The notes: a model not told the origin generated them from the letters alone. DNA of 5,329 nt from a virus (IMGVR_UViG_2913177423_000004), one strand, 5' to 3'. Positions 1-5,329 are shown, numbered from the stretch's first letter. A program made the numbers and translations.

Positions 1-1
1 G

Positions 2-166
2 CCAGTTTTTGTTGACCACTACAACGTTGACCTGGCCGCCAGCGGCGTTGCCTACAAAGAGCGGATGAATATACCGGTAATTGCAGAACAGGTAGCCCGT
101 GAGCAACCGGAGAACTTGCACACCTATTTCATGGAACGGCTACGATACTGGCCGGCGTTGAATTAA
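2..166 (+). CDS. 3' end of an upstream phage gene (partial; start lies outside the window), product unknown
   Basis: Frame-2 reading frame is open from the window edge to TAA at 164..166 (54 sense codons, ...[13 protein letters not shown]). GC-rich third codon positions. Absent from the ORF track because it is truncated. Product not recognised. Confidence 0.4.
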
Positions 167-225
167 TCCACATGATGCGCAAGGGGCAATATCAGCATCC
201 TCAGGGTGATGGATTGTCACCCACA

Positions 226-272
226 GAACAATTTTATCTGCTGACTTTCCACCGTTAACGCGACACAACCTT
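226..272. repeat. Left arm of a long inverted repeat; perfect 32-bp core at 241..272
   Basis: 241..272 (ctgactttccaccgttaacgcgacacaacctt) is the exact reverse complement of 1226..1257. Flanking bases 226..240 also match the reverse complement of 1292..1305 with one T indel. Weaker similarity continues outward to about 205 on the left and 1325 on the right. Confidence 0.85.
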
Positions 273-438
273 AATATGCCACAAAGGTTTTTGTTAACGA
301 GCTGCATCTTTTTCTTTTCTGGGTGATGATTGTTTTATAATAAACAAATAACAACATTTATTCTTGTAAAAGTAATAATATCTCTTTGGTGATCGAATTT
401 ATTGATCGCATTTCAATTAAACAAATAAGGAGTTTTTT

Positions 439-1140
439 ATGCCCAAAATTACCGGTGTTCTAGTGAGCCACCATGTGTTCGATATAAAAAAAGACATGGC
501 TAATGGTTCATTCCCGAAAACATTATTTCCAGGCGCGACATTTCAGATGGTGGTTGACAATGATGTTGTCAATAATAATACGTTGGACTGGAGTGTTGTC
601 ACCAATGCGGGAGACAATTCGCTGACTGTAAATCAGGACGGCGTGGTGTCATTTTCAAATGATATTGATGAAAGTTGCATTGGTAAAACATTTGTTATTT
701 TTGCGAAGGATAAAGCCACAGGGAAAAATGTGTCATCTTATTTAATTAAACCTTATCGCTTCTTTAAACCTCGTACCGCAACGTCGGACAGATTTTACGA
801 TGCATTGTTTTGGATTGAGGATAAAAAAGGGACTGTCCCGGCACGACGCGATATCAATAATGTCCCTTTCGATGAACTGACGGGAGAAATGTTTCATGAT
901 GTAAAACGTGAAGTGAATTCCGGGCTTTTTCAGGAATGGGGATTTTTACTGTTTAGTGGGTGGACTAATCCTGTACGTGGTGATATTGGTAGTCTCGAAT
1001 CAGAAATTTTCACTTTAGAAAATGACAGTATATTTATATCGACAGTCAACTCCCTCCCATACTCCAGAGATCTCCATGATGATATGGACTCCCAGTCTGC
1101 ACAGGCTGTAGCGTTTTACGGGGAATCTGTTGTTTCCTGA
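439..1140 (+). CDS. Hypothetical protein, 233 aa, AT-rich orphan gene; possible beta-rich Ig-like N-terminal region; function unknown
   Basis: ATG at 439 is preceded by a strong Shine-Dalgarno (taaggag at 426..432, 6-nt spacer). Uninterrupted 233-codon frame ending TGA at 1138..1140. Composition is visibly more AT-rich than int or ybhC. No signal peptide and no catalytic motif that I can name. Residues ~30-100 (ATFQMVVDNDVV...LDWSVVTNAGDNSLTVNQDGVVSF...) have the alternating pattern of a bacterial Ig-like domain, but this is an impression, not a match. Confidence 0.8.
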   Translation: MPKITGVLVSHHVFDIKKDMANGSFPKTLFPGATFQMVVDNDVVNNNTLDWSVVTNAGDNSLTVNQDGVVSFSNDIDESCIGKTFVIFAKDKATGKNVSSYLIKPYRFFKPRTATSDRFYDALFWIEDKKGTVPARRDINNVPFDELTGEMFHDVKREVNSGLFQEWGFLLFSGWTNPVRGDIGSLESEIFTLENDSIFISTVNSLPYSRDLHDDMDSQSAQAVAFYGESVVS

Positions 1141-1162
1141 TGTTTTAATGAGTTTTTAATAG

Positions 1163-1193
1163 TCTCCGTCTTTTTAATTTAAAGAGACGGAGA
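1163..1193. terminator. Palindromic stem-loop 23 bp after the 233-aa ORF; possible terminator or protein/RNase site
   Basis: tctccgtcttttt (1163..1175) pairs with aaagagacggaga (1181..1193): 13 bp including one G-U pair, loop aattt. It is not followed by a clean T-tract on either strand, so it is not a canonical intrinsic terminator. Confidence 0.35.
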
Positions 1194-1225
1194 TTATCGG
1201 CTCTGCAACGTGAAGCTCAGGAACA

Positions 1226-1305
1226 AAGGTTGTGTCGCGTTAACGGTGGAAAGTCAGCAAAAGTTGTATTGCTGGCTTTTCATGCAGCCAGCAGATAAAT
1301 TGTTC
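1226..1305. repeat. Right arm of the long inverted repeat; perfect 32-bp core at 1226..1257, then a ~34-bp insertion, then the extended match
   Basis: 1226..1257 is the exact reverse complement of 241..272. 1258..1291 has no counterpart on the left and contains its own small hairpin (gctggc ... gccagc). 1292..1305 resumes the match to 226..240. Confidence 0.85.
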
Positions 1306-1476
1306 CGCGGGTGACAGCCATTACCGCGAAGGCATATTGCAAGGGGCGTTGCTTGTGGTCGATTCCTCACTCACTCCAGTTGATGGTTCGCTGCTTGTAT
1401 GTGCTTATCGCATAAAGAGATATCGGAAGCATCCGCGCCGCTATGATTGTCTTTCTCCTGATGCAGGAAAAGCAGA

Positions 1477-1791
1477 ATGGCTAAATCAGCAGCAGAGCGC
1501 AAAGCCGATCAGAGAGCCAAGCAAGCATCATCCGGTATGCGTAAGCTGGAGCTTGTACTTGATGCTCAGGAAATTGAAATGCTGGAGCGTAACTGTGCCA
1601 CGCGTCGCTTCAGGCGTGCGCCTTACGAGTTTGGTGAGTACATCGCGTTACTGAGCCGCCAGGATGATGCACTTGTGCGCTGGCGTATAAAATCGATCAG
1701 CATAAAACGTTGCGGTAAGTGCGGCGAGAGAGTTCCTGTTAATTCATGCCCGTGTAATGGTGACTCACAATGCTGGGTGACCAAAGGCTGA
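1477..1791 (+). CDS. Hypothetical small protein, 104 aa, charged helical N-terminal part plus C-terminal Cys cluster (putative zinc ribbon); possibly an Ea8.5-like protein
   Basis: ATG at 1477 with AGGA at 1465..1468 (8-nt spacer); stop TGA at 1789..1791. C-terminus RCGKCGERVPVNSCPCNGDSQC has a C-x2-C-x8-C-x-C-x5-C spacing typical of a zinc-binding knuckle. The overlapping ORF 1337..1654 in another frame looks non-protein-like. An alternative start at the internal Met (codon 21, nt 1537) cannot be excluded. The Ea8.5 comparison is from memory of its described homeodomain/zinc-finger fold, not from sequence alignment. Confidence 0.6.
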   Translation: MAKSAAERKADQRAKQASSGMRKLELVLDAQEIEMLERNCATRRFRRAPYEFGEYIALLSRQDDALVRWRIKSISIKRCGKCGERVPVNSCPCNGDSQCWVTKG

Positions 1792-1820
1792 TTCGAATTT
1801 AAGAACTGAAAGAACACCAA

Positions 1821-1841
1821 GCCGCCTGATGGCGGTTTTTT
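1821..1841 (+). terminator. Rho-independent terminator-like hairpin (GC stem + T6)
   Basis: gccgcc tgat ggcgg followed by tttttt (1836..1841), 30 bp downstream of the 104-aa ORF stop. The first in-frame ATG of the next ORF (1829) lies inside this stem-loop, so it is unlikely to be the real start. Confidence 0.6.
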
Positions 1842-1855
1842 ATTGGAGACAAGAA

Positions 1856-2200
1856 ATGTCAGATTTGGCTATGAAGATTTTGAAATGGCAAACGACTGGC
1901 GATGTCGGCATCAGTAGCGCAACTCTTGCCTCAATCGCATGTGGACTGAAAAAGAATATCTATGGTCATCACTTCGGTGCTCCACATGACGCAGCCGATT
2001 TCCGACGATGCGTTGCACTTGTTGAGCAGATTCCAGAAATCAGAGATTCATTCGACAAGGTTGCAAAGCGCGTTCCGGCATTCAAAGGCATCCTCAACGA
2101 ATGGGATTCTCTCGTTGCTCTGTTGAAGTCTGAAATGAAGATACACGGAAACAAAGCACCAGAAACTTACAGAAGAATTAGCGAGCTACGCAAGTACTAA
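1856..2200 (+). CDS. Hypothetical protein, 114 aa (MSDLAMKILKWQ...), function unknown
   Basis: ATG at 1856 preceded by GGAG at 1845..1848 (7-nt spacer); stop TAA at 2198..2200. The ORF track starts it at 1829 (123 aa), but that ATG is inside the upstream terminator hairpin. The gene is followed by two hairpins (2206..2224 and 2259..2279). Product not recognised. Confidence 0.7.
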   Translation: MSDLAMKILKWQTTGDVGISSATLASIACGLKKNIYGHHFGAPHDAADFRRCVALVEQIPEIRDSFDKVAKRVPAFKGILNEWDSLVALLKSEMKIHGNKAPETYRRISELRKY

Positions 2201-2258
2201 CCACAGCCTCACACTCGATGAGGCCTGTTCATTTCTCAAGATATCCAGACCTACCATC

Positions 2259-2279
2259 GCCGCATCAATGCGGCTTTTT
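2259..2279 (+). terminator. Rho-independent terminator-like hairpin (stem + T5) immediately upstream of the pI / xis region
   Basis: gccgca tcaa tgcggc followed by ttttt (2275..2279). A second hairpin (gcctca cactcga tgaggc, 2206..2224) sits directly after the stop codon of the 114-aa gene. Confidence 0.55.
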
Positions 2280-2280
2280 C

Positions 2281-2294
2281 TTGCGTGTAATTGC
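2281..2294 (+). promoter_or_regulatory. cII-binding box (TTGC-N6-TTGC) of the int promoter pI
   Basis: ttgc gtgtaa ttgc at 2281..2294, immediately upstream of and overlapping the xis translation initiation region. This matches the established arrangement of lambda pI, where the cII-activated promoter overlaps the start of xis so that the transcript encodes Int but not Xis. Confidence 0.65.
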
Positions 2295-2306
2295 GGAGAC
2301 TTTGCG

Positions 2307-2525
2307 ATGTACTTGACACTTCAGGAGTGGAACGCACGCCAGCGACGCCCAAGAAGCCTTGAAACAGTTCGTCGATGGGTACGCGAGTGCAGGATATTCC
2401 CTCCTCCGGTTAAAGATGGAAGAGAGTATCTGTTCCACGAATCAGCGGTAAAGGTTGACTTAAATCGACCAGTAACAGGTAGCCTTTTGAAGAGGATCAA
2501 AAATGGGAAGAAGGCGAAGTCATGA
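2307..2525 (+). CDS. xis: Excisionase Xis (lambda-type), 72 aa
   Basis: Protein MYLTLQEWNARQRRPRSLETVRRWVRECRIFPPPVKDGREYLFHESAVKVDLNRPVTGSLLKRIKNGKKAKS matches lambda Xis as I recall it. GGAG at 2295..2298 precedes the ATG at 2307. The ORF-track start at 2268 lies inside the upstream terminator hairpin and is rejected. The 3' end overlaps the int start by 23 bp, as in lambda. Confidence 0.95.
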   Translation: MYLTLQEWNARQRRPRSLETVRRWVRECRIFPPPVKDGREYLFHESAVKVDLNRPVTGSLLKRIKNGKKAKS

Positions 2526-3573
2526 GCGCCGGGATTTACCCCCTAATCTTTATATAAGAAACAATGGATATTACTGCTACAGGGACCCAAGGACGGGTAA
2601 AGAGTTTGGATTAGGCCGAGACAGGAGGATAGCAATCACTGAAGCTATACAGGCCAACATTGAGTTATTTTCAGGACACAAGCACAAGCCTCTGACAGCG
2701 AGAATCAACAGTGATAATTCTGTTACGTTACATTCATGGCTTGATCGCTACGAAAAAATCCTCGCCAGCAGAGGAATCAAGCAGAAGACACTCATAAATT
2801 ACATGAGCAAAATTAAAGCAATAAGGAGGGGTCTGCCTGATGCTCCACTTGAAGACATCACCACAAAAGAAATTGCGGCAATGCTCAATGGATACATAGA
2901 CGAGGGCAAGGCGGCGTCAGCCAAGTTAATCAGATCAACACTGAGCGATGCATTCCGAGAGGCAATAGCTGAAGGCCATATAACAACAAACCCGGTCGCT
3001 GCCACTCGCGCAGCAAAATCAGAGGTAAGGAGATCAAGACTTACGGCTGACGAATACCTGAAAATTTATCAAGCAGCAGAATCATCACCATGTTGGCTCA
3101 GACTTGCAATGGAACTGGCTGTTGTTACCGGGCAGCGAGTTGGTGATTTATGCGAAATGAAGTGGTCTGATATCGTAGATGGATATCTTTATGTCGAGCA
3201 AAGCAAAACAGGCGTAAAAATTGCCATCCCTACAACATTGCATGTTGATGCTCTCGGGATATCAATGAAGGAAACACTTGATAAATGCAAAGAGATTCTT
3301 GGCGGAGAAACCATAATTGCATCTACTCGTCGTGAACCGCTTTCATCCGGCACAGTATCAAGGTATTTTATGCGCGCACGAAAAGCATCAGGTCTTTCCT
3401 TCGAAGGGGATCCGCCAACCTTTCACGAGTTGCGCAGTTTGTCTGCAAGACTCTATGAGAAGCAGATAAGCGATAAATTTGCTCAACATCTTCTCGGGCA
3501 TAAGTCGGACACCATGGCATCACAGTATCGTGATGACAGAGGCAGGGAGTGGGACAAAATTGAAATCAAATAA
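2503..3573 (+). CDS. int: Tyrosine site-specific integrase Int (lambda-type), 356 aa
   Basis: Protein MGRRRSHERRDLPPNLYIRNNGYYCYRDPRTGKEFGLGRD...HLLGHKSDTMASQYRDDRGREWDKIEIK matches lambda Int in length and sequence as far as I can recall, including the C-terminal catalytic region (R...HxxR...Y). GAGG at 2492..2495 precedes the ATG at 2503. Confidence 0.97.
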   Translation: MGRRRSHERRDLPPNLYIRNNGYYCYRDPRTGKEFGLGRDRRIAITEAIQANIELFSGHKHKPLTARINSDNSVTLHSWLDRYEKILASRGIKQKTLINYMSKIKAIRRGLPDAPLEDITTKEIAAMLNGYIDEGKAASAKLIRSTLSDAFREAIAEGHITTNPVAATRAAKSEVRRSRLTADEYLKIYQAAESSPCWLRLAMELAVVTGQRVGDLCEMKWSDIVDGYLYVEQSKTGVKIAIPTTLHVDALGISMKETLDKCKEILGGETIIASTRREPLSSGTVSRYFMRARKASGLSFEGDPPTFHELRSLSARLYEKQISDKFAQHLLGHKSDTMASQYRDDRGREWDKIEIK

Positions 3574-3601
3574 TGATTTTATTTTGACTGATAGTGACCT
3601 G
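3571..3601 (-). promoter_or_regulatory. P' arm-type Int binding sites (P'1-P'3)
   Basis: Reverse complement reads caGGTCACTATcAGTCAAAATaAAATCATTA, three tandem approximately 10-bp matches to the arm-type consensus (C/A)AGTCACTAT, directly downstream of the int stop codon as in lambda attP. Confidence 0.8.
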
Positions 3602-3608
3602 TTCGTTG

Positions 3609-3621
3609 CAACAAATTGATA
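3609..3621 (-). promoter_or_regulatory. IHF binding site H' of the P' arm
   Basis: Reverse complement TATCAATTTGTTG fits the IHF consensus WATCAANNNNTTR and lies between the arm-type sites and the core, as in lambda attP. Confidence 0.7.
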
Positions 3622-3646
3622 AGCAATGCTTTTTTATAATGCCAAC

Positions 3647-3661
3647 TTAGTATAAAAAAGC
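3647..3661 (-). other. att common core (15 bp) of attL, the phage/host junction
   Basis: ttagtataaaaaagc is the reverse complement of the lambda core GCTTTTTTATACTAA. It is preceded by gccaac (reverse complement of the P' start GTTGGC) and followed by aggcttcaacg (reverse complement of the attB B-arm CGTTGAAGCCT). Confidence 0.9.
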
Positions 3662-3708
3662 AGGCTTCAACGGATTCATTTTTTCCATTTTAAAGCCCGG
3701 AGCAACCT

Positions 3709-4992
3709 GTGAACACATTTTCAGTTTCCCGTCTGGCGCTGGCACTGGCTTTTGGCGTGACGCTGACCGCCTGTAGCTCAACACCGCCCGATCAACGTCC
3801 TTCTGATCAAACCGCGCCTGGTACCTCTTCTCGCCCGATTCTGTCGGCAAAAGAAGCGCAGAATTTCGATGCTCAACACTATTTTGCATCCCTGACACCA
3901 GGTGCTGCAGCGTGGAATCCTTCCCCGATTACCCTGCCTGCGCAACCTGACTTTGTTGTCGGCCCGGCGGGTACCCAAGGTGTAACGCATACCACGATTC
4001 AGGCAGCGGTGGATGCGGCAATTATCAAGCGTACCAACAAGCGCCAGTATATTGCCGTGATGCCTGGTGAGTATGAAGGCACGGTCTATGTCCCTGCCGC
4101 TCCGGGTGGAATTACTCTGTACGGTACAGGTGAAAAACCGATTGATGTGAAGATTGGGCTTTCCCTTGATGGGAGCATGAGCCCTGCCGACTGGCGTCAC
4201 GACGTCAACCCGCGCGGCAAATATATGCCAGGTAAACCAGCGTGGTACATGTACGATAGCTGCCAGAGCAAACGCAGCGACAGTATTGGCGTGCTCTGTT
4301 CTGCGGTTTTCTGGTCACAAAACAATGGCCTGCAACTGCAAAACCTGACCATCGAAAACACGCTGGGCGATAGCGTAGATGCGGGTAACCATCCGGCGGT
4401 GGCACTGCGTACTGATGGCGACAAAGTGCAGATCAATAACGTCAACATTCTCGGTCGTCAGAACACCTTCTTTGTCACCAACAGTGGTGTGCAAAACCGT
4501 CTGGAAACCAATCGTCAACCGCGTACTCTGGTGACGAATAGCTATATTGAAGGGGATGTGGATATCGTTTCTGGTCGCGGCGCGGTGGTGTTCGATAATA
4601 CCGAATTCCGCGTGGTGAACTCCCGTACTCAGCAAGAAGCGTATGTGTTTGCACCGGCTACGCTGTCTAACATCTATTACGGTTTCCTCGCCGTAAACAG
4701 CCGTTTCAATGCTTCCGGTGATGGCGTGGCGCAACTGGGCCGCTCGCTGGATGTTGATGCCAATACCAACGGTCAGGTGGTGATCCGTGATAGCGCCATC
4801 AACGAAGGTTTTAACACGGCTAAACCGTGGGCCGATGCGGTGATTTCCAATCGTCCATTTGCGGGTAATACCGGCAGCGTTGACGATAGCGACGAAGTAC
4901 AGCGCAATCTGAATGACACTAACTACAACCGCATGTGGGAATACAATAACCGCGGCGTGGGTAGCAAAGTGGTTGCAGAAGCGAAGAAGTAA
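3709..4992 (+). CDS. ybhC: Outer-membrane lipoprotein YbhC (pectinesterase-family fold, putative acyl-CoA thioesterase), 427 aa
   Basis: GTG start at 3709 with GGAG at 3699..3702. N-terminus MNTFSVSRLALALAFGVTLTAC has a lipoprotein signal peptide and lipobox (LTAC). Length and sequence match E. coli YbhC as I recall it. It is the host gene adjacent to the lambda attachment site on the gal side. Confidence 0.93.
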   Translation: MNTFSVSRLALALAFGVTLTACSSTPPDQRPSDQTAPGTSSRPILSAKEAQNFDAQHYFASLTPGAAAWNPSPITLPAQPDFVVGPAGTQGVTHTTIQAAVDAAIIKRTNKRQYIAVMPGEYEGTVYVPAAPGGITLYGTGEKPIDVKIGLSLDGSMSPADWRHDVNPRGKYMPGKPAWYMYDSCQSKRSDSIGVLCSAVFWSQNNGLQLQNLTIENTLGDSVDAGNHPAVALRTDGDKVQINNVNILGRQNTFFVTNSGVQNRLETNRQPRTLVTNSYIEGDVDIVSGRGAVVFDNTEFRVVNSRTQQEAYVFAPATLSNIYYGFLAVNSRFNASGDGVAQLGRSLDVDANTNGQVVIRDSAINEGFNTAKPWADAVISNRPFAGNTGSVDDSDEVQRNLNDTNYNRMWEYNNRGVGSKVVAEAKK

Positions 4993-5008
4993 GAGCTATT
5001 AACTATTT

Positions 5009-5285
5009 GCCGGATGCGGTGTAAACGCCTTATCCGGCCTACGGTTCGATGCGATTTGTAGGTCGGATAAGATGCGCAAGCATCGCATCCGACAATAAGT
5101 GCCGAAATGCGGCGTAAACGCCTTATCCGGACTACGGTTCGATGCGATTTGTAGGTCGGATAAGATGCGCAAGCATCGCATCCGACAATAAATGCCGGAT
5201 GCGGCGTGACCGCCTTATCCGGCCTACGGTTCGATGCGATTTGTAGGTCGGATAAGATGCGCAAGCATCGCATCCGACAATAAGT
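5009..5285. repeat. Three tandem REP/BIME units (about 92 bp each), the E. coli repetitive extragenic palindrome cluster downstream of ybhC
   Basis: Units at 5009..5100, 5101..5193 and 5194..5285. Each contains gccggatgcggcgtaaacgccttatccggcctac (the canonical REP palindrome) followed by a second palindromic unit ...gtaggtcggataagatgcgcaagcatcgcatccgac.... A partial fourth copy starts at 5286. The minus-strand ORFs 4923..5273 and 4999..5181 are artefacts of these repeats. Confidence 0.9.
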
Positions 5286-5329
5286 GCCGGATGTGTAGTG
5301 GCATAGTAAATTTGGCCACCTGAATAGAG

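Follow-up and report, generated by a model that had tools for sequence, protein, structure and literature searches.

An accessory region of a cryptic-clade Escherichia prophage is probably a patchwork of separate modules, one of them a putative insertion-sequence-delivered gene for a stand-alone invasin-tip-like protein

Introduction

Ahead of xis, lambdoid phages carry a stretch of non-essential genes that varies among them and is oriented with the leftward early (pL) operon; in lambda, this region between exo and xis holds orf55, ea8.5, ea22 and orf61/63/60a (PMC3824215, PMC7093339, PMC8614690). Here, we analyse a 5,329-nucleotide (nt) stretch of viral DNA (IMGVR_UViG_2913177423_000004; hereafter, the window). 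It contains the right-hand end of a lambdoid prophage that sits at the lambda attachment (att) site in a cryptic-clade Escherichia. Positions 166–2306 of the window occupy the same slot before xis (recombination genes lie upstream in related prophages, placing the stretch between these and xis) and hold three genes, for proteins of 233, 104 and 114 amino acids (aa), which a sequence-only reading of the window had singled out as unrecognised and possibly acting together.

Two further described systems bear on this stretch. In phage P1, the gene order is hot, lxr (on the opposite strand), a LexA box and humD. In invasin and intimin, a disulfide in the adhesive tip is needed for receptor binding. 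We conclude that 166–2306 is probably a non-essential accessory stretch of the leftward operon, built of modules with separate histories that include an invasin-tip gene delivered as a moron by an insertion sequence (IS), and not a three-gene system.

Results

The three open reading frames (ORFs) lie at 439–1140, 1477–1791 and 1856–2200, all on the + strand, which they share with xis and int and which is the direction of the pL operon. Much of their first description stood: each has its own ribosome-binding site (RBS; AAGGAG 7 nt before ATG 439, AGGA before ATG 1477 and GGAG before ATG 1856), hairpins lie between the genes (1159–1197, 1819–1838, 2206–2224 and 2259–2274), and all three products are still named 'hypothetical protein' in every source. 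What did not survive was the suggestion of joint action, as the three genes proved to have independent, uncorrelated distributions: among 5,426 complete E. coli genomes, the 233-aa gene was found in none, the 104-aa gene in 636 and the 114-aa gene (ORF114 of phages 434 and HK022; see below) in 937 (~17%), and the 233-aa gene was also absent from all 50,697 phage records (tblastn searches of the phages included). ORF114 is present without the other two genes in 434 and HK022, the 104-aa gene or its 112-aa form occurs without ORF114 in phage Chlobot and many E. coli prophages, and homologues of the 233-aa protein occur singly, whether in a nin region, a plasmid or chromosomal islands. Adjacency of all three genes was seen solely in a set of cryptic-clade Escherichia prophages (five of the six loci shown). 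In one prophage at the ybhC site (locus L008, 11039–12085), hot, the IS stubs described below and the 233-aa gene are retained and are followed by a 112-aa gene, a DUF2513 gene and orf55; this replacement of the 104-aa gene and ORF114 indicates recombination at 1791 within the lineage. The three genes are thus independently inherited pieces, and their reading as a functional unit is not supported. A single accessory system of three jointly acting genes, such as a pL-transcribed defence or lysogeny-control operon, is very improbable: the genes are co-oriented, each with an RBS, and their adjacency extends to cryptic-clade prophages with different integrases, but each is widespread without the others, a pseudogene, IS stubs and terminator-like hairpins lie between them, L008 keeps the first gene while exchanging the other two, and none of the three proteins matches any PADLOC model at E ≤ 0.1.

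The product of the first gene (439–1140, + strand) resembles a stand-alone invasin D4–D5 pair, that is, an immunoglobulin (Ig)-like domain followed by a C-type-lectin-like domain. Residues 23–101 match Pfam Invasin_D4 (PF21764) at 35.4 bits (cut-off, 27), the family profile matches residues 304–395 of Yersinia invasin (1CWV), starting from the first residue of D4, and the L-x-x-E-W-G motif of the D5 lectin-like domain is collinear in the same profile alignment. An AlphaFold (AF2) model of the protein (predicted local distance difference test (pLDDT) 74, with a confident Ig domain) was aligned by Foldseek with invasin 1CWV over all 233 columns (E = 1.8 × 10−12, TMq 0.66) and with the intimin C-terminal fragment 1F00 over 240 columns (E = 1.6 × 10−7). 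The protein has no signal peptide, anchor or hydrophobic segment (maximum KD19, 0.67; isoelectric point, 4.7), and a Pfam search of it gave no match to IAT_beta or LysM, both of which its distant relatives have. Its single cysteine, C80, belongs to the Ig domain, and a disulfide in the tip is therefore not possible. As for the acidic receptor-binding residues of invasin, the position of D811 (the synergy Asp of D4) is not Asp in the hidden Markov model alignment, and the D911 loop falls in a low-confidence, unalignable region. Taken together, profile matches and the structural model identify the 233-aa protein as a predicted adhesive tip of an inverse autotransporter, freed at the D4 boundary.

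A profile search of 1.84 billion representative proteins returned 50 hits at E ≤ 0.001, and those beyond the immediate family were mostly the C-terminal ends of 700–3,000-aa proteins, which, where checked, carry IAT_beta, LysM, Big_1 and Invasin_D3. The family itself, 14 clusters among 5.8 billion, is restricted to Escherichia, where it occurs chiefly in E. marmotae and other cryptic clades (the 90%-identity cluster of the 233-aa protein includes E. marmotae and other Escherichia members). An identical 233-aa protein is encoded in at least six cryptic-clade prophages, which between them have five different integrases and as many integration sites (ybhC, fliE, proA, one beside a resistance–nodulation–division (RND) efflux operon and one close to a yniD-like gene), and in every one of them the order hot, IS stub, gene, IS stub, 104/112-aa gene is kept. 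The 14 clusters, at 40–94% identity, share their start, length and strong RBS, and the ratio of nonsynonymous to synonymous substitution rates (dN/dS) is ~0.3 in five independent pairs, pointing to purifying selection on a functional gene rather than to debris. Variation in the family alignment is greatest in the C-terminal lectin-like loops. These features bear on the alternative that the ORF has no function and is a 3′ remnant of a disrupted invasin-like adhesin gene that was moved by an IS. Such an origin would fit the exact coincidence of the ORF start with a domain boundary in a larger protein family, the IS debris on both of its sides, and the frameshifts or truncations of some relatives (loci L018 and L023); however, a shared start, length and RBS across such divergent clusters, the dN/dS values, the conservation of upstream motifs and the keeping of an identical protein in prophages at five att sites all argue against it, and we regard it as quite unlikely.

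More distant members of the family occur in an E. coli prophage nin region (on the opposite strand), on a Rep3 plasmid, in two chromosomal islands and in one island next to an ADP-ribosyltransferase gene. In the last of these (Escherichia sp. E3659; locus L004, 8760–10034), a 70%-identical homologue lies 60 nt upstream of the gene for a 424-aa protein with a central Scabin-like ADP-ribosyltransferase domain (Pfam, E = 7 × 10−13; PDB Scabin, E of about 1 × 10−4) and no signal peptide. The sister island L018 has no ADP-ribosyltransferase gene, and its invasin-tip gene is frameshifted. A constant partner gene was accordingly rejected: the Scabin-like neighbour is found in L004 only, the same island in L018 is without it and the other contexts differ. 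Having no constant partner, the 233-aa gene is therefore a single-gene module. Assignment to a defence system was rejected as well, with no PADLOC match for the three window proteins or for the L004 neighbours. No paper on stand-alone invasin-tip proteins in prophages was found in the literature.

Because the 233-aa protein would be produced in the cytoplasm and has no catalytic domain, only two domains of binding type, we infer that it acts stoichiometrically, binding a protein or glycan ligand by way of its variable C-terminal lectin-like loops. Where it acts is a separate matter. Prophage-encoded virulence factors freed by lysis are an established category, and the protein might act outside the bacterium as an adhesin-like binder of host receptors, released by lysis or exported independently of a signal; this same module is what its sole functionally characterised relatives use to bind receptors of animal cells, and the concentration of variability in the lectin-like loops is in keeping with such a role. 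Yet the lack of signal peptide, anchor and hydrophobic segment, a lone cysteine that precludes the tip disulfide, the replaced D4 synergy Asp and the finding that no secretion-system genes adjoin any family member make this possible but somewhat unlikely, and we rate an intracellular role in lysogenic conversion or conflict as somewhat more likely than an extracellular role after lysis.

The 233-aa gene lies within a candidate moron unit (327–1200, + strand) that consists of an AT-rich upstream region, the gene and a hairpin, and that is held in common with unrelated islands. Nucleotide identity is 79% to islands L018 and L019 over 327–1200 and to L004 over 327–1146, and these islands are without the IS stubs. 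GC content is 0.31–0.43 across 201–1300, compared with ~0.45–0.53 in the flanks. TATAA and TAATAT motifs upstream of the gene (TAATAT at 376–381) are conserved in all family members, and the unit ends in a strong hairpin (1159–1197, + strand; −26.3 kcal/mol, z = −6.6) that is conserved with the gene in L018 and L019 and may be a terminator, one with no U-tract. The 233-aa gene may well be expressed autonomously. Phage records and E. coli genomes share the flanking genes without the 233-aa gene, that is, the unit shows presence/absence polymorphism. Two candidate modes of control were dropped: a LexA box, which P1 and E. coli relatives have before humD, was not seen in 273–438, and a hairpin at 389–409 with two GATC sites, 30–50 nt before the start of the 233-aa gene, which might have served as a Dam-methylation switch, is conserved neither in L004 and L018 nor in the wider family and is probably incidental.

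A perfect 34-nt inverted repeat (239–272 and 1226–1259, 100% complementary) brackets the 233-aa gene, with weaker similarity farther out, and each arm appears to be a remnant of an IS6-family element. The left remnant (142–270, + strand) comprises the last ~40 codons of a transposase and a terminal inverted repeat, its tip at 270 facing the cargo; positions 142–243 have 89% nt and 78% aa identity (E = 8 × 10−19) to the C-terminus of the IS6-family transposase WP_162122884.1, and in this lineage the stub has a 34-nt internal deletion relative to L010 and L012. The right remnant is inverted (1228 to ~1325, − strand), with its terminal repeat tip at 1228 likewise towards the cargo and its outer part deleted; it is 79% identical in nt sequence to an IS6-type end in L022 and 73% identical to one in L021, and retains a residual 'LSPAEQF' on the − strand (1317–1297). 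A plasmid search supplied the IS6 assignment of both arms, each of which ends in the IS6-type terminal repeat GGTTGTGTCGCGTTAACGG, with GGTTGTGTCGCG... at the tip. Because both tips point at the gene, the arms read as right ends left over from a pair of inverted IS6-family copies, each now without its outer part, and no intact transposase gene is left (~40 codons in the left arm, a degenerate stub in the right). No intact IS6 was found around the cargo, and a scan of genome contigs for the IS/cargo junctions gave two loci, both without an intact IS. An initial interpretation of the arms as duplicated, diverged 5′ fragments of humD was rejected when the plasmid search and tblastn matched them to the 3′ ends of IS6 transposases; 1226–1306 has only weak similarity to humD, with true homology beginning at ~1307.

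The inner 34 nt of the repeat are 100% identical in seven loci (L007–L012 and L024), whereas the outer parts differ, and the arms could pair in a read-through transcript. A functional repeat, for example an invertible switch or a stem at which RNase III would process the pL transcript, would account for both features. However, both arms are explained as transposase 3′ ends with terminal repeats, the perfect 34 nt are the IS terminal repeat region and would have been identical in the two copies from the start, the orientation of the gene is constant in every locus seen and no invertase gene lies nearby, all of which makes a functional repeat highly improbable and IS debris the preferred explanation. 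In Escherichia whittamii (locus L023, 1–1761), the left IS6 stub and the 233-aa gene, cut at the equivalent of window position 808, are joined to a different integrase (~70% nt identity to int), forming a decayed version of the moron. A 55-aa ORF on the − strand (140–307) overlaps the left stub and is most likely an artefact of the repeat, not a gene.

Outside the IS remnants lie the two ends of a P1-like module. The window opens with the 3′ end of a gene like hot and holE (1–165, + strand; theta subunit of DNA polymerase III; Pfam PF06440, E = 1.8 × 10−22), which has 86% nt identity to P1 hot over 23–144 and meets the IS at ~139–145, such that the final ~7 codons of the hot homologue are read from IS-derived sequence. 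On the other side, beyond an IS/humD junction at ~1305–1325, where the two sequences are locally alike, is a humD pseudogene fragment (1307–1444, + strand; umuD′-like, S24 peptidase) that corresponds to residues 33–82 of P1 HumD (tblastn, 82% identity, E = 9 × 10−25) and has a 4-aa deletion. It is without a start codon and a C-terminal part, and is not a full-length S24 peptidase ORF; in E. coli relatives, the fragment is annotated as incomplete ('DNA repair protein / HumD family'). With hot and the humD fragment in P1 order, the window keeps both ends of the module, and the insert replaces lxr and the start of humD. The sequence-only reading had passed over most of this, namely the IS6 end fragment at 142–272, the identity of the ORF ending at 165 as a hot/theta homologue fused to IS-derived sequence, and the second IS6 end fragment and humD pseudogene in what had seemed a gap (1141–1476).

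The 104-aa gene (1477–1791, + strand) belongs to phrog_536 ('transcriptional regulator'; E = 2.6 × 10−45, residues 1–104 on positions 2–107 of the 115-position profile), a family of more than 447 clusters from E. coli, Salmonella, Citrobacter, Edwardsiella, Raoultella and other Enterobacteriaceae genera, whose members are almost always 112 aa long. The window copy ends eight conserved residues early, at the 1791 junction with 434-type sequence. The family alignment has an invariant C40 and C79-x2-C82-x8-C91-x-C93-x5-C99, and the basic N-terminal region gave a sub-threshold match to the ribbon–helix–helix protein YbfE (E = 0.0066; 16.8 bits, cut-off 62). From these sequence features, a small zinc-binding, DNA-binding protein, possibly of the ribbon–helix–helix type, is a reasonable guess. 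Downstream of the 104/112-aa gene, E. coli genomes usually have a DUF2513 gene and orf55 instead of ORF114. A sequence search against solved structures gave no meaningful match for either the 104-aa or the 114-aa protein.

The 114-aa gene (1856–2200, + strand; phrog_1229, E = 2 × 10−51) has 96–97% nt identity to ORF114 of phages 434 and HK022, where it has the same position beside xis. Although unrecognised in the sequence-only reading, it has thus long been catalogued, if uncharacterised. It also occurs in Stx1a and mEp phages (96–97% nt identity), with distant relatives in Citrobacter and Cronobacter. A 123-aa version starting from ATG 1829 was rejected, as that start lies within a terminator hairpin and ATG 1856 is the annotated start in phage 434. 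An AlphaFold model based on 15 sequences (pLDDT 92.8) predicts an all-alpha protein of seven helices and had no significant structural match; no paper on ORF114 was found in the literature. Terminator-like hairpins bracket the gene. The left copy (1819–1845, + strand; stem, 1819–1838) has a T-run and lies within a 55-nt island of lambda sequence, and to the right are two hairpins (2206–2283, + strand), at 2206–2224 and at 2259–2274, the latter with a T-run and terminator-like. A terminator and the start of the cII-dependent pI promoter are annotated in 434 at positions equivalent to ~2262–2314, so that the promoter extends beyond 2306 into the start of xis. Lambda has a single hairpin copy where the window has two (1819–1845 and 2259–2283), which indicates that the ORF114 cassette is an insertion or a deletion at a terminator; from these alignments, the cassette seems to be gained and lost by recombination within the hairpin.

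The flanks of 166–2306 complete the mosaic. A mosaic prophage had been proposed at the outset, and alignment agreed, joining a lambda int/xis/att module to a non-lambda accessory set: nt identity to lambda is 97.8% over 2259–3661, taking in xis (2307–2525, + strand, from ATG 2307; 97.8%) and int (2503–3573, + strand; 97.8%). It stops exactly at the att core (GCTTTTTTATACTAA on the − strand, 3647–3661), and identity to lambda, 434 and HK97 all ends at 3661. With the host gene ybhC next (3709–4992, after the att core), the prophage–host junction therefore lies inside the window. Outside 2259–3661, lambda shares a single 55-nt island (1791–1845), made up of the 3′ end of orf55 (its last 39 nt, 1791–1829) and its hairpin. 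Phage 434 is collinear with the window over 1791–3661 at 97.8% identity, and the breakpoints are thus 2259 with respect to lambda and 1791 with respect to 434. The lambda gene sizes from which the mismatch had first been deduced are correct (ea22, 182 aa; ea8.5, 93 aa; the ORF beside xis, 55 aa). None of the three genes has sequence homology to any lambda gene of that region: in tblastn searches of the three proteins against lambda 27700–32100, the best E value was 0.15, and none of the three is a counterpart of orf55, ea8.5 or ea22. The best match to the whole window was Escherichia sp. E1V33 (98% over 1–5203), and the exact 233-, 104- and 114-aa proteins are on record from Escherichia sp. 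E2593 and other unclassified Escherichia. An Rfam search found no RNA gene in 1–4994. Downstream of ybhC (4995–5317), four tandem units of the repetitive extragenic palindrome (REP) or bacterial interspersed mosaic element (BIME) type match Rfam naRNA4 (RF02564), two of the four above the gathering cut-off (77.2 and 64.3 bits), and are ordinary intergenic repeat DNA of the E. coli type.

Discussion

These comparisons suggest a history in which a P1-type SOS module, hot–lxr–humD, would once have filled the left part of the stretch. The lxr gene and the 5′ part of humD would then have been replaced by cargo lying between two inverted IS6-family copies, and later deletions would have taken the outer bulk of both copies, leaving the 100–130-nt inner ends that remain as the inverted repeat. 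The cargo may have been an AT-rich moron complete in itself, in which a conserved upstream region and a strong RBS precede a single gene and a strong hairpin follows it; the encoded protein begins exactly at the D4 boundary and is predicted to keep the Ig-like and C-type-lectin-like tip, having lost the signal peptide, the LysM and beta-barrel anchor and the tip disulfide. Next come the humD pseudogene, then a truncated member of the 112-aa Cys-rich family, which is probably a small DNA-binding regulator, and finally the ORF114 cassette of 434 and HK022, which presumably entered between paired copies of a terminator hairpin, shortly before pI, xis and int.

Several observations weigh against this reconstruction. 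The trio does stand together in most of the cryptic-clade prophages shown, making co-function within that lineage possible. In the 233-aa model, residues 141–174 have pLDDT below 50, which leaves the Ig domain the more secure of the two domains; the protein has no PADLOC, PHROG or NCBIfam match and no constant neighbour gene, and the function proposed for it is purely inferential. A scan for consensus sigma-70 promoters on the + strand upstream of the gene found none, and the hairpin that closes the moron has no U-tract. There is no 8-bp target duplication (271–278, TTAATATG, and 1220–1227, GGAACAAA, match in neither orientation), a test of limited value where the outer ends are deleted, and the composite-transposon stage is reconstructed rather than observed.

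For annotation, this analysis removes a false three-gene lead, two of the three genes being common phage ORFs that are catalogued but uncharacterised, and the third rare and probably IS-delivered. The odd inverted repeat becomes explicable as IS6 debris, offering a likely example of an IS that brought a moron in among the early accessory genes of a lambdoid phage before itself eroding. It also defines a tiny, Escherichia-restricted family in which what appears to be the receptor-binding tip of invasin and intimin occurs as a free, signal-less protein on prophages, plasmids and islands. Were the 233-aa protein to bind a ligand from host or phage, it would represent a novel type of factor for lysogenic conversion or conflict, and it would also be a useful marker for following prophages as they move between the cryptic clades. 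With its wide occurrence, confident model and lack of a structural match, ORF114 is a cheap target for functional work near xis. A bolder proposal, which we consider doubtful, is that the stand-alone invasin-tip family represents a new class of mobile-element cargo, either a cytoplasmic Ig and lectin-like 'binder', derived from a surface adhesin and used in conflict between phage and host or between phages (sequestering a component of the incoming phage or of the host, or partnering an ADP-ribosyltransferase toxin, as the position in L004 suggests) or a factor for animal receptors released by lysis, and that ORF114 has a small helical fold of a new type and, in view of its constant position beside xis in ~17% of E. 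coli genomes, takes part in the int/xis decision.

Set against described systems, each module has a recognisable counterpart from which it departs. The order and orientation of the hot and humD homologues on either side of the insert are those of P1 hot–lxr–humD, but the window is without lxr, the LexA box and the start of humD, its humD is fragmentary and its hot is fused to IS-derived sequence. The relatives of the other two genes, phrog_536 and ORF114 (phrog_1229), are families neither of which has an experimentally known function, and the 104-aa copy differs from the rest of phrog_536 in being without the last eight conserved residues. Compound (or pseudo-compound) transposons of the IS6/IS26 family are similar in that cargo is bracketed by two IS6-family copies (transposase C-terminus and GGTT..TGTCGC terminal repeat), whereas the copies here are ~100–130 nt long, without a transposase and inverted, with both right ends inward, around a cargo that has no resistance gene and no visible target duplication. 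With invasin D4–D5 (1CWV) and intimin D2–D3 (1F00), the 233-aa protein shares an Ig-like domain above the Pfam cut-off, a C-type-lectin-like domain and full-length structural alignment; it differs in having ~20% sequence identity, in being without a signal peptide, LysM, beta-barrel, Big_1 stalk and tip disulfide, and in being phage and IS cargo confined to Escherichia. Finally, the unit is like phage morons in its low GC content, its own upstream region and hairpin, its presence/absence polymorphism and the occurrence of the same block in unrelated contexts, and differs from them in that its promoter and terminator are putative and its vehicle, two truncated and inverted IS6-family ends, is still visible.

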